In this document: positions 12,001 through 15,000 of the stretch, one piece after another
Numbering within the stretch: position 1 is the first letter of the stretch
Layout: every line of letters starts with the position of its first letter
IMG/VR virus record: IMGVR_UViG_2529292831_000013
Direction: 5' to 3' (one strand)
Source: a virus
Taxonomy: Duplodnaviria; Heunggongvirae; Uroviricota; Caudoviricetes
Length of the DNA stretch: 19,043 nucleotides
Program-made: the position numbers

Positions 12001-15000
12001 AACGGATGCAACAAGGAAAGCCTGCGGGCGTATTTCCCGGCAACAGAGCGCATTCTGTTTGCTGAACATTATCAGGGGCCATACCAGCCCAAAAATGACG
12101 GCTATGCGGCAAAGGGGCGCGAGCTTAAACAGTGCGTCATGGCCCCGCTGATTTCTTACTTTCGTGATGCGCGAGAATCTCTGGGAATAACATCAAAACA
12201 GATAGCGGAAGCCACCGGAAAGAAAAACATGGCGTCACACTGGTTTGGTGCCAGTCAGTGGCAGTTGCCGAACGAGGCTGATTACAAAAAACTTCAGGCG
12301 CTGTTCGCGCGTGTTGCAGCAGAAAAACACCAGCGCGGGGAGCTGGAAAAGCCGCACCACCAGCTGGTCAGCACATACAGTGAACTGAACCGGCAATATG
12401 CCAGCCTGCAGGAGGAGTATAAATCCCTGCGGCGTTATTTTTCCGTATCAGCTGCTGTTCCGTATACGGATGTCTGGACGCACAAGCCTGTGCAGTATTA
12501 TCCAGGCAAACATCCCTGTGAAAAACCGGCAGATATGTTGCGTCAGATAATTACTGCCAGCAGTCGCCCCGGTGATTTGGTCGCTGATTTTTTTATGGGG
12601 TCTGGCTCAACAATAAAAGCAGCACTTTCACTGGGACGTCGCGCAATTGGCGTGGAACTGGAAGAAGAGAGATTTAATCAGACTGTAACTGAAATAAAAA
12701 ATAATCGTTAAATATGCATTTAATAATTTCTTTATTTCATAAAAAATAAAAATATATACGTATATTTACAAATCTTGATATGATTTTCCATTGAAAAGAG
12801 AGCTGGCATTATTAATATCGGTACCCGGTTCCGAAGGGGATGTAAGCGCGGTCATTTTTATTTCTCTTGAGGAACCTGTGCCGACTTAGCTCAGCAGGCA
12901 GAGCAACTGACTTGTAATCAGTAGGTCACCAGTTCGATTCCGGTAGTCGGCACCATATGCGGGTATCGTATAATGGCTATTACCTCAGCCTTCCAAGCTG
13001 ATGATGCGGGTTCGATTCCCGCTACCCGCTCCAGAGAAACAAGCCTTATTGTATCGTTGCACTGGCGTATTTTTTATTGCGTGGGAGCAGGTTGTTTTTA
13101 AAAGGCATTCTGTTTTCTGGCTGTGATTTGAGGTCGGTTATAGCCACAGTGCTGTTTTTTACACCACTGGAATGGTGCATTATCGGTGGAAATTGAGCAT
13201 TTCCTGACAGGGGCCGATGATGCACTATCCCGGTGTTGTAAATAACACTACAGAGGTGTTCCTCAGTGCGAGGGTGGTTTATGTAACTGTTTAGCGGGAA
13301 ACCACAGTATTCATGGAGAGATGGATACTTCGGGGGGCACCCGACACCTCTGTTTTTCTACTACAAAAATGATTCATCTCTGGCATTTTTCAACCGCCGT
13401 TCCGGGCGGTTTTTTTTATTCTGAACTCAGAAAAGAATACACGGGCATTGATATTACCCGTGTGGCAAGGCCATGAAAGCCAATAATGAACTGAGCGCAA
13501 AAAAAGCGCGGCTGTCGGATTAACGCCGCGGGACAAAGTCCGTGAAGAAGAATAAGCATCAGTCTCCTCCAGGAGACGATTTGATATTACTAAGCTTTAA
13601 AAATGGTTTAAACCCCCGGATTAACCTTAATTTCAGATAAGCTTTATTTCATTTTCTCCGAGCCACGTCAGGCGCATATCACATCAGATAACACCACATA
13701 AAAGGTATCTGCGGGTGCCTTTCACGGGGTGTTTTTTTACGGGCCGCTGGTGGCCCTTTTTTATTTACAGGAGAAAAAGTATGTCTGAACCCTTATCCGG
13801 TTCCGGCACGGCTGCAGCGCTCGGCGGGGCGACGGTGTACGGGCTGTTTACCGGAACGGATTTCGGGATTGTGTTTGGTGCCTTTGCCGGGGCGTTATTT
13901 GTGGCAACGATGCCGCAGGCGCTTTCAGCCTGGCGTGTGGCGGCACATTTTCTGGTGTCGTTCATTGTTGGTGTGCTGGGGGCAGAAGTTCTGGCATCCT
14001 GGCTGGTAAAGCATACAGAGTTTGACGGTGCACCTGTCGACGCATTGTGTGCAGTACTGGTGTCAGTGGTGTCGGTGAAGATTCTCTCGTTCATCCACCA
14101 GCAGGATATTGCATCACTGGTGTCCGGTCTGTTCTCCCGTCTGCGGGGCGGAGGAGGCGGCAATGTTAAGTAACCTTCCCGGATTGCTGAATGTGGCGTT
14201 ATGCACGGTTATCGTGCTGACGCTCTTTTTTTATCGTCGTCGTGATTCCAGACATAAACCGTTGATGTCATGGCTGGCCTGGCTGCTGATGCTGCTTTAT
14301 GCCTTTGCACCACTCAGTTATCTGTGCGGTCGCCCGTTAGCGGCGAACTGGCTGGCGGTGGGGCTTAATCTGCTGTTCTGCGTGTTGGTTATTCGCGCAC
14401 GCGGGAACGTTTCAAAAATCTTTGTATTACGAAGACGCTGATATGAAGTCGAAAGATGAAATTTTTGACGAAGTTCTGGGAAAAGAGGGCGGTTACGTCA
14501 ATCACCCGGATGATAAAGGCGGACCGACAAAATGGGGTATTACGGAAAAAGTCGCCCGCGCTCACGGATATCAGGGCGATATGCGTGACCTGACACGCGA
14601 ACAGGCACTGGAAATCCTTGAGGCGGATTACTGGTTCGGACCACGCTTTGATCAGGTGGCCGCATTATCCTCTGATATTGCTGCAGAGTTGTGTGATACC
14701 GGTGTGAATATGGGGCCGTCCGTAGCATCGAAAATGCTCCAACGCTGGCTGAACGTTTTCAACCTGCAAGGCAAATTGTTCCCGGATATGGACGCAGACG
14801 GGCGTATCGGCCCCCGCACGATTAATGCACTACGGACTTATCTGCAAAAACGCGGCAAAGACGGCGAACTGGTGATGCTGAAGGCGCTGAATTGCACGCA
14901 GGGCGACCGCTATCTGGAGCTGGCAGAAAAACGCGAGGCCAACGAGTCGTTTGTCTACGGCTGGATGAAAGAGCGCGTAGCAGTTTAAAAACTGACGCTG

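Follow-up and report, generated by a model that had tools for sequence, protein, structure and literature searches.

The closest described counterparts of the element treated here are small RNAs (sRNAs) of lambdoid prophages, and the element itself is the spacer between a tRNA pair and the first holin gene in a stretch of 19,043 nucleotides (hereafter the window) from IMG/VR virus record IMGVR_UViG_2529292831_000013 (Caudoviricetes). STnc100 is a prophage sRNA present in multiple copies in Salmonella and in pathogenic Escherichia coli. RNAs of the STnc100 family are discrete sRNAs of 160-210 nt, and 11 STnc100 copies were transcribed in uninduced EDL933, one of them confirmed by Northern analysis (PMC5331693). 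STnc100 lies 75 nt downstream of stx2B in Shiga toxin 2 (Stx2) phages (PMC12370729), and RpoD binds STnc100 promoters in Salmonella LT2 (PMC10794520). In enteropathogenic Escherichia coli (EPEC), PasD1 and PasD2 are abundant RNAs of 172-173 nt that were captured on Hfq, with many partners, by RIL-seq, the ligation and sequencing of interacting RNAs (PMC8550237). In strain E2348/69 they adjoin the holin/lysozyme operon and are homologues of EcOnc13 in enterohaemorrhagic E. coli (EHEC), and a common ancestor of PasD1/PasD2 and STnc100 was proposed by Zhu, Shabalina and Storz in 2026 (bioRxiv 10.64898/2026.05.13.724894). For Stx phages, PMC7547250 describes StxS as having arisen as a by-product of termination at tR'.

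The window corresponds to the late region of a defective lambdoid prophage (RefSeq annotation and Pfam) and was 100% identical to a chromosomal segment in several enterotoxigenic (ETEC) and other E. coli strains. Its spacer, 747 bp from the end of tRNA-Gly to the holin ATG (13034 to 13780), is on balance probably a conserved non-coding cassette of the lambdoid late-gene leader, in which a tRNA-sRNA unit is combined with Q-dependent terminators; this reading was drawn from sequence comparison. Within the spacer, we conclude from architecture, signature hairpins and slot that 13249-13418 is a divergent member of the STnc100 superfamily, though it scored below the Rfam threshold. The original prediction had placed the two tRNAs and a gene-free, terminator-rich spacer in a lambdoid late interval that often carries cargo, and had suggested that the spacer could encode small RNAs or be the scar of lost cargo. 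The late context was confirmed, in the order (Q, minus-strand moron, methyltransferase, tRNAs, spacer, holins, endolysin); the cargo slot and the small RNAs also stood, and the scar did not.

Structured RNA and terminators behind the tRNA pair

Both predicted tRNAs were genuine. The plus-strand genes for tRNA-Thr (anticodon UGU, 12880-12955) and tRNA-Gly (anticodon UCC, 12959-13033), each with an encoded CCA, were the only two tRNA genes called in the window by ARAGORN, scored 69.8 and 65.6 bits with the Rfam tRNA model (RF00005, gathering score 29 bits), and are annotated in RefSeq. Both were ~97% identical to chromosomal thrU and glyT of E. coli and Salmonella, between which tyrU is located, which suggests that the phage pair was captured from the host tRNA cluster upstream of tufB. 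A promoter-like site (TTGAAA, 16 nt, TAATAT) with an A/T-rich block upstream was located by consensus scan at 12791-12818 on the plus strand. The -35, the -10 and the A/T-rich block were preserved in 38 distinct upstream sequences of relatives, and the site is a putative sigma-70-type promoter of the tRNA unit.

Between 13034 and the holin ATG at 13781, no open reading frame (ORF) of at least 60 amino acids was present. In alignments of relatives there was no 3-base periodicity and indels were almost all non-multiples of 3; the longest stop-free stretch of the spacer switched strand among relatives, and no ORF was common in one frame. Coding potential of the spacer was ruled out on the grounds of periodicity, indel lengths and the lack of a common ORF, in agreement with the prediction of an interval with no convincing gene. 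In some genomes hypothetical proteins have been called over the structured RNA on either strand (L007 1802-2200; L009 3358-3908), and no genome carrying the element has a non-coding RNA annotated over it in RefSeq.

Directly behind the tRNAs, a plus-strand RNA structure of ~360 nt was found that consists of three independently stable domains, a linker and an intrinsic terminator. The stretch 13034-13425 folded to -155.3 kcal/mol, compared with -108.9 +/- 5.7 kcal/mol for shuffled sequences (z = -8.15, RNAfold). The first domain, D1 (13059-13160), is a three-way junction closed by an invariant GCACUG/CAGUGC helix and followed by a U-run at 13155-13160; its minimum free energy (MFE) was -38 kcal/mol over 13059-13152 (z = -5.3), the closing helix was preserved in 37 sequences, and the inner hairpins had compensatory changes (helices 1-3). 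With its U-run, D1 may serve the tRNA transcript as a leaky terminator or as a site of processing. D2 (13162-13242) is a long imperfect hairpin of ~22 bp (MFE -43.1 kcal/mol, z = -7.1) whose helix 4 had 97.8% of cells paired and double changes in 5 pairs, one pair being AU in 20 sequences and GC in 17. Weak Rfam matches to miRNA-precursor models at D2 were attributed to hairpin shape only.

D3 (13250-13353, z = -4.8) is the STnc100-like core, made up of an outer stem and four hairpins, with near-invariant CCUCAGNGCGAGGGUGGUU and UUCGGGAGGCACCCGAC. Its helices 6-10 were 98.9-100% paired, the outer stem covaried (CG in 19 sequences, UA in 17), and two of the hairpin loops (AGNGC and AGGCA) were near-invariant. 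Kissing of the first and fourth D3 hairpin loops (GUGC/GCAC) was considered and dropped, because the variable N of AGNGC changes without compensation, and no long-range pairing was predicted between D1, D2 and D3. The A/U-rich single-stranded linker (13354-13391) that follows is the most variable module (64-67% identity to relatives, compared with 80-82% for D3), and is a candidate seed region by analogy with PasD, whose seed lies at the same place (PMC8550237 supplement). The plus-strand sRNA would end at an intrinsic terminator (13392-13418, z = -4.5; stem 13392-13411, T8), of which the stem was invariant, the loop variable, and the U-run present in all relatives. A natural variant is carried by E. 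coli ATCC 8739 (L237, 1890-2200), in which D1, D2, the A/U-rich linker and the same terminator are kept and the D3 core is absent; PGAP calls a 106-aa hypothetical protein across it.

In an RNAalifold consensus of 37 diverse sequences (69 consensus pairs, 11 helices), 97.2% of cells were paired, compared with 36-57% when partners were slid by 1-3 columns. Changes on both sides were found at 18 pairs (95 cells), the slid versions reaching at most 8 pairs and 31 cells, and none of 500 shuffles attained the observed cell count or covariation score. G-U cells numbered 295 and A-C cells 21, which indicates plus-strand-specific pairing. Since such G-U pairs occur in D1 and D2, the transcript must begin upstream of 13059.

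The RNA was closely tied to tRNA arrays. Upstream tRNAs were present at 89 of the 92 assessable IMG/VR loci, and in nearly all 89 the distance from the last tRNA end to the D3 motif was 223-233 nt, whatever the tRNAs; the sets differed between loci (Thr-Gly, Met-Arg, Met-Arg-Thr-Gly, Lys-Thr-Gly, and others).

Both terminators named in the original prediction were present (stem 13392-13411 with T8; stem 13741-13756 with T6), and three or more were found beyond them. By consensus scan, 9 terminator-like sites were counted in 12500-14000, compared with 2.4 +/- 1.9 in dinucleotide shuffles. As they were called from a hairpin and a U-run, these spacer hairpins are predicted rather than observed terminators.

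At gathering thresholds, Rfam returned only the two tRNAs and sok; the spacer gave a single sub-threshold match of interest, in which the STnc100 model (RF02076) was aligned over its full length to 13222-13421 (19.9 bits, E = 0.015 in a search limited to that stretch). The remaining matches in the spacer at E <= 10 (weak hairpin-type miRNA matches, mmgR, and others) were all taken as chance. A covariance model of 174 positions and 32 pairs, R1, was built with no sequences other than those of the window's family. On the STnc100 copy of PhiR49_2 (L234), R1 scored 34.5 bits (E about 1e-7 to 1e-6); its matches to STnc100 of the Stx1 phage AU5Stx1 (L236; 20.9 bits, E = 0.005) and to the annotated STnc100 of the Stx2 phage F004 (L233; 17.6 bits, E = 0.002-0.04) were marginal. 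R1 thus aligned to annotated or BLAST-defined STnc100 at all three loci, and the covariance-model matches were reciprocal. The STnc100 model gave no match at E <= 0.01 in the relatives L002-L009, and scored 37.7-41.4 bits on the PasD loci, which is also below its threshold. In Superficieibacter electus (L168 6323-7003, minus strand; L167), an STnc100-like sequence is repeated in tandem, giving three or four copies that all have a terminator of their own; the genes for phage lysozyme and Rz follow immediately downstream, and there is no tRNA close by.

Minus-strand unit, holin leader and distribution of modules

Downstream of the plus-strand sRNA, module M3 is a candidate convergent sRNA-like gene on the minus strand. 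Its short form would span ~80 nt (13577 to 13499) and comprises a 5' hairpin (13577 to 13562), a pyrimidine-rich single strand (13561 to 13542), and a GGACUUUGUCC hairpin (13541 to 13531), followed by a first terminator (CGCGGC...GCCGCG, 13530 to 13507, with U7 at 13505 to 13499). The single strand was nearly invariant and the 5' hairpin covaried. A second terminator with a U-rich run (ACACGGG...CCCGUGU, 13463 to 13429, stem 13463 to 13439) stands back to back with the plus-strand terminator at 13392-13418; it had compensatory changes in two pairs, and U7 on the minus strand in most relatives. Read-through to 13429 is predicted to give a form of ~150 nt. In a 30-sequence alignment, 35 consensus pairs were obtained, 6 with compensatory changes, and 65 G-U cells were valid on the minus strand only, compared with 6 A-C cells. 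The putative promoter of this RNA is a promoter-like site at 13584-13612, minus strand (TTTAAA at 13612 to 13607, 17 nt, TAATAT at 13589 to 13584), whose hexamers were conserved across two allele types (TTTAAA; TAATAT or TAGTAT).

The holin leader, M4, contains two tandem plus-strand terminators that leave 8 nt up to the GGAG in the ribosome-binding site of the holin (GGAG and ATG, 13770-13783; ATG at 13781, RefSeq annotation). The first, T3 (13690-13738), is an extended hairpin at ~13690-13731 followed by U7 at 13732-13738 (RNAfold), and was conserved in relatives; the second, T4 (13741-13762), is formed by GGGCCGCUGGUGGCCC, with its stem at 13741-13756 and then U6, and was conserved in the A1 relatives, including those with cargo directly upstream. 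The region 13680-13770 folded with z = -3.4, and the block and the holin leader of phage phiP27 shared 93% identity. Where cargo is inserted upstream, M4 stays joined to the holin.

From a ten-copy alignment, separable modules were recognized: M1/D1 (behind the tRNAs), M2 (D2, D3, linker and terminator), M3, and M4. Among ~100 IMG/VR loci, M4 was found directly behind M2, behind M3, or ~680 bp further on. In E. coli O141:H4 P13-6 (L008, 2429-3003), genes of the TerB family and DUF3927 lie exactly between M3 and M4; this insert marks a cargo insertion point within the spacer, and an insert of ~680 bp was present at the same point in about a dozen of the ~80 IMG/VR loci listed. Comparison with related prophages thus bore out the cargo slot of the original prediction, with stx2AB between the tRNAs and STnc100 in Stx phages and TerB and DUF3927 in P13-6.

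The element was present in 429 of 5426 complete E. coli genomes (about 8%), and at least 80% of 12700-13800 was found in 211 E. coli genomes at 80-86% identity. An IMG/VR scan for the invariant D3 19-mer returned 101 loci, two of which were chance matches, leaving ~99 related loci. The region also occurs in phage vB_EcoS-683R6, between a different Q and a lambda-type S holin and without the methyltransferase, and twice, in tandem, in phage SerU-LTIIb. In the latter, an LT-IIb toxin phage (L002, 1100-4400), the tRNAs, sRNA and holin module are duplicated together; tRNA-Arg replaces tRNA-Thr in the first copy, and the second copy is without M3. In E. coli genomes, 39 of the matching places were plasmid-borne. 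One sRNA copy (121.8 bits with R1) lies on the ETEC IncF plasmid pE21845IncF (L238, 2262-2717) behind a degenerate 'tRNA-OTHER', between insertion sequence (IS) remnants and adjoining a DMT transporter gene.

Proposed mechanism and alternative explanations

From established lambdoid late regulation and what is known of Hfq-dependent sRNAs, we infer the expression, RNA ends, processing and Hfq binding of the window element as follows. In a lysogen (here a prophage remnant), the promoter at 12791-12818 would drive a tRNA-sRNA transcript ending at 13418, and its processing by RNase P and RNase E would yield the tRNAs and a stable trailer with the same 3' end. As in the case of STnc100 and PasD, this trailer would associate with Hfq and regulate by base pairing, with the variable linker as its seed, and the minus-strand RNA would either work in trans or be antisense to the late leader. 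All transcripts not made terminator-resistant by Q at the late promoter would be stopped by the four or five plus-strand terminators; as these would block polymerase without Q modification, holin and endolysin would be made only upon induction. Because the prophage is defective, its lysis genes are probably never induced. In such a remnant, few parts may be expressed, the tRNA-sRNA unit among them.

Several observations weigh against this account of the cassette. Identity between genomes was lower in the spacer modules (64-86%) than in the methyltransferase and first holin (89-97%, which holds for three of the four genome pairs compared), and the covariation signal may be partly due to a few allele types inherited by many sequences. 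D3 is missing in ATCC 8739 and is therefore not indispensable. No convincing sigma-70 promoter was found immediately upstream of D3, by eye or by consensus scan; together with a transcript start upstream of 13059, this leaves co-transcription with the tRNAs, followed by processing, as the simplest explanation. For the minus-strand unit, the promoter matches 8 of 12 positions, below the scan cut-off, and folding energy was equal on both strands (z = -2.9 each). Its predicted duplexes (duplexfold) with the start regions of holin 1, holin 2, endolysin, methyltransferase, Q, iss and nohD did not exceed those of shuffles (best z = -2.15). With regard to kinship, the STnc100 score is below the Rfam gathering score of 47, so far below that the element was never annotated, and D1 and D2, which precede the window element, have no counterpart in the STnc100 model. 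Full-length R1 matches of 20-44 bits were obtained in prophage regions of Trabulsiella, Salmonella diarizonae, Superficieibacter, Enterobacter, Klebsiella, Kosakonia, Pantoea and others, at loci mostly preselected on an 18-nt motif within R1, so that these scores are inflated. On the PasD loci (L010, L011) R1 had no match at E <= 1, blastn at word size 7 against PasD1/PasD2 gave chance matches of 8-11 nt only, and no similarity to any Pas sRNA was found by BLAST, similarity by BLAST being the criterion that defines the PasD family in Zhu et al. (2026).

The spacer might instead be a purely cis-acting insulator, in which hairpins and U-runs terminate transcripts without Q and protect the 3' ends of the tRNA transcript, the RNAs being targetless by-products. 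In its favour are the four or five plus-strand terminator-like elements within 750 bp, two of which abut the ribosome-binding site of the holin, and it is consistent with the tandem copies before lysis genes in another genus (Superficieibacter), with the loss of the D3 core and retention of the terminator in ATCC 8739, and with the origin of StxS as a tR' termination by-product (PMC7547250). Termination, however, needs only a hairpin and a U-run, which leaves 100-nt multi-helix covarying domains and near-invariant loops unexplained, as it does the conserved convergent minus-strand unit; moreover, PasD and STnc100 accumulate, and PasD was captured on Hfq with many partner RNAs. We consider the insulator unlikely. 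It is quite improbable, on our estimate, that D1-D3 (13059-13353) form an ornate RNA of ~300-360 nt, an obligatory trailer of phage tRNA arrays whose AGNGC and AGGCA loops contact protein, RNA polymerase or tRNAs; if true, such a trailer would do more than pair through a seed and might govern tRNA maturation or stability, or polymerase passage into the lysis genes, and it would correspond, in enterobacteria, to GOLLD and ROOL, the large phage RNAs that adjoin tRNAs. In the broader form of one large structured RNA that is not a base-pairing regulator (a put-like antiterminator, an RNA polymerase or protein binder, or a GOLLD/ROOL-like RNA), this would accord with a 390-nt stretch folding at z = -8.15, the fixed distance to tRNA arrays at 89 of 92 loci, two near-invariant hairpin loops of the kind expected of ligand or protein contact, and a position upstream of several terminators and the lysis genes. 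The modules nevertheless recombine independently of one another (there are different alleles of D1, ATCC 8739 has no D3, and STnc100 is found with neither D1 nor D2), D3 has a strong conserved terminator of its own, relatives are discrete sRNAs 160-210 nt long, the prophage already has a Q antiterminator, and the domains are not predicted to pair with one another over long range; a single large RNA is very improbable.

Reading the spacer as a decayed remnant, either the scar of lost cargo or a frameshifted gene, draws on a slot that is a cargo hot spot (stx, TerB/DUF3927), on a defective prophage, and on the hypothetical ORFs annotated over the stretch in some genomes. It is hardly credible when those ORFs vary in strand and position among genomes, when periodicity, indel lengths and reading frames are those of non-coding DNA, and when base pairs have been maintained by compensation across ~100 phage contigs. 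No gene remnant was detected in the spacer, the protein-level look being limited to ORF analysis, and each spacer module recurs in many prophages with compensatory changes, which speaks against the scar proposed originally; the covariation, the STnc100 link, the strand-specific G-U pairs and the conserved terminators point instead to small RNAs, which is the better of the two readings offered. For the minus-strand unit, a small protein could be encoded by a 47-aa ORF (13559 to 13416), which in the window has a strong Shine-Dalgarno-like GGAGGAG 5 nt before its ATG; the minus strand also has a stop-free stretch of 48-69 codons in 30 of 30 relatives. The start is ATA in most of the 30 aligned relatives, however, and because ATG occurs in only a small minority, the window included, a protein is unlikely. 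The GGAGGAG belongs to a covarying hairpin, of which it forms the 3' arm, the two allele types are set apart by a 1-nt indel inside the ORF, and variability had no codon phase (0.115, 0.105, 0.128), so that we rate this protein as extremely doubtful.

Prophage setting and comparison with described systems

Upstream of Q, the gene order of the window includes sok/hokD, DUF968 and RusA (RefSeq, Pfam, Rfam). The Q antiterminator gene (9221-9574) ends 3.3 kb upstream and is followed by a moron-like minus-strand gene of 427 aa (9781-11064; phrog_5990, no known function), located between Q and the late genes; Pfam and PADLOC searches with it gave no match and were uninformative. A 64-aa gene and the N6/N4 DNA methyltransferase gene (11665-12711) precede the tRNA pair. 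Behind the spacer lie two holin genes (the first PF16931, phrog_198), a GH108 endolysin gene, iss/bor, nohD, and a terminase gene into which an IS66-family element has been inserted. Directly behind Q there is a bidirectional hairpin (9577-9604), and a strong plus-strand terminator (11173-11194) follows an A/T-rich stretch; ~11100-11194 may represent a candidate PR'/tR', displaced from Q.

At the left edge of the prophage remnant, the sok antisense RNA (Rfam, 110 bits) and the hokD toxin gene form a type I toxin-antitoxin system (7030-7354). A minus-strand operon (4154-6185), which encodes a ParA-family ATPase along with two proteins that match no family, is flanked by chromosomal-type genes (BCCT transporter, DUF2254) and by hok/sok; the ParA had only a weak PADLOC match (PDC-M28B). 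The gene for the terminase large subunit (17434-19043; L001 18735-23367) is broken by the IS66-family element ISCro1, and IS100/IS21 is located upstream of the window.

With the cassette in about 8% of complete E. coli genomes, ETEC and livestock isolates among them, and in many phage contigs, the STnc100/PasD superfamily would be extended beyond EHEC, EPEC and Salmonella to ETEC, commensal and other enterobacterial prophages, and a second, convergent sRNA candidate would be added. A linker that varies within an otherwise conserved structure is in keeping with seed swapping, and the tie to phage tRNA arrays suggests a biogenesis route for the sRNA family. The cassette may also help to explain why the interval is retained in defective prophages and which sequences hold the lysis genes silent. 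Its relevance is to annotation and sRNA evolution, and current views of lambdoid late regulation are not overturned.

Two other described RNAs were set aside: svsR, which sits elsewhere (3' end of cI), and HnrS, judged on its description (66 nt, almost confined to EHEC and EPEC, hence of other size and host range). A full-text literature search with six signature sequence strings found no paper.

Like STnc100, the window element has an outer stem enclosing hairpins that include CCyCnGUGCGrGG and CGGGAGGCACCCG (CGGGrGGCACCCG in the Rfam alignment), then an A/U-rich linker and an intrinsic terminator, at ~170-200 nt overall, and it is placed on the strand of the late genes, with the Q/tRNA (or stx) region before it and the holin after it. 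It differs in an unrelated linker and in its second and third hairpins. The order in PhiR49_2 is Q, methylase fragment, tRNA-Met, tRNA-Arg, tRNA-Arg, terminator, STnc100, holin; in the Stx2 phage F004 it is Q, three tRNAs, stx2AB, STnc100, esterase, further genes, holin. The window element is coupled to its tRNA array without a simple post-tRNA terminator, unlike the STnc100 of PhiR49_2, which has one.

With PasD, the element has in common the slot (Q, few genes, sRNA, holin), a similar size (172-173 nt), and the succession of a structured 5' domain, a single-stranded seed and a terminator. PasD is without the CGGGAGGCACCCG hairpin as such and has a recognizable promoter of its own (TTGACT, 17 nt, TTAAAA), whereas none is evident upstream of D3 in the window. 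The minus-strand candidate resembles PasA and PasC (homologues of EcOnc51/52, which lie immediately upstream of the holin in antisense orientation to the late operon) in orientation and neighbourhood, and resembles PasA (85-nt and 236-nt forms) also in its predicted size (~80 nt, or longer on read-through) and in having two terminators in succession. The order of plus-strand sRNA, convergent minus-strand sRNA and holin mirrors PasD2...PasA in E2348/69. The predicted fold, however, is different from those of PasA and PasC, so that the likeness is positional only, and blastn-short against PasA, PasB and PasC showed no similarity, with chance 11-12-mers elsewhere in the window.

In E. coli, 3'ETS-leuZ is an sRNA derived from the 3' external transcribed spacer of a tRNA operon. 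Similarly, the structured RNA of the window lies directly 3' of the last tRNA (which ends at 13033) and before the first strong terminator (13392-13418), and its fixed distance to the tRNAs fits 3'ETS-like co-transcription and release by processing. The window trailer is far longer and more structured than 3'ETS-leuZ, and STnc100 behind stx, like PasD, is not beside tRNAs, unlike the 3'ETS-type arrangement.

The terminators before the lysis genes, which would be passed only by Q-modified polymerase, recall those of lambda 6S RNA and StxS, short transcripts that arise when polymerase stops at tR' downstream of the late promoter PR'; according to PMC7547250, such a short RNA can be recruited as a regulator. 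Both RNAs have their start at PR' directly behind Q, whereas the RNAs of the window lie behind the tRNAs and the methyltransferase gene. sRNAs of the STnc100/PasD type, with their usual tRNA neighbours and terminators, are already known from the late regions of prophages, and what is new is an unannotated variant; the spacer cassette is a recognizable and fairly ordinary feature of lambda-like phages.

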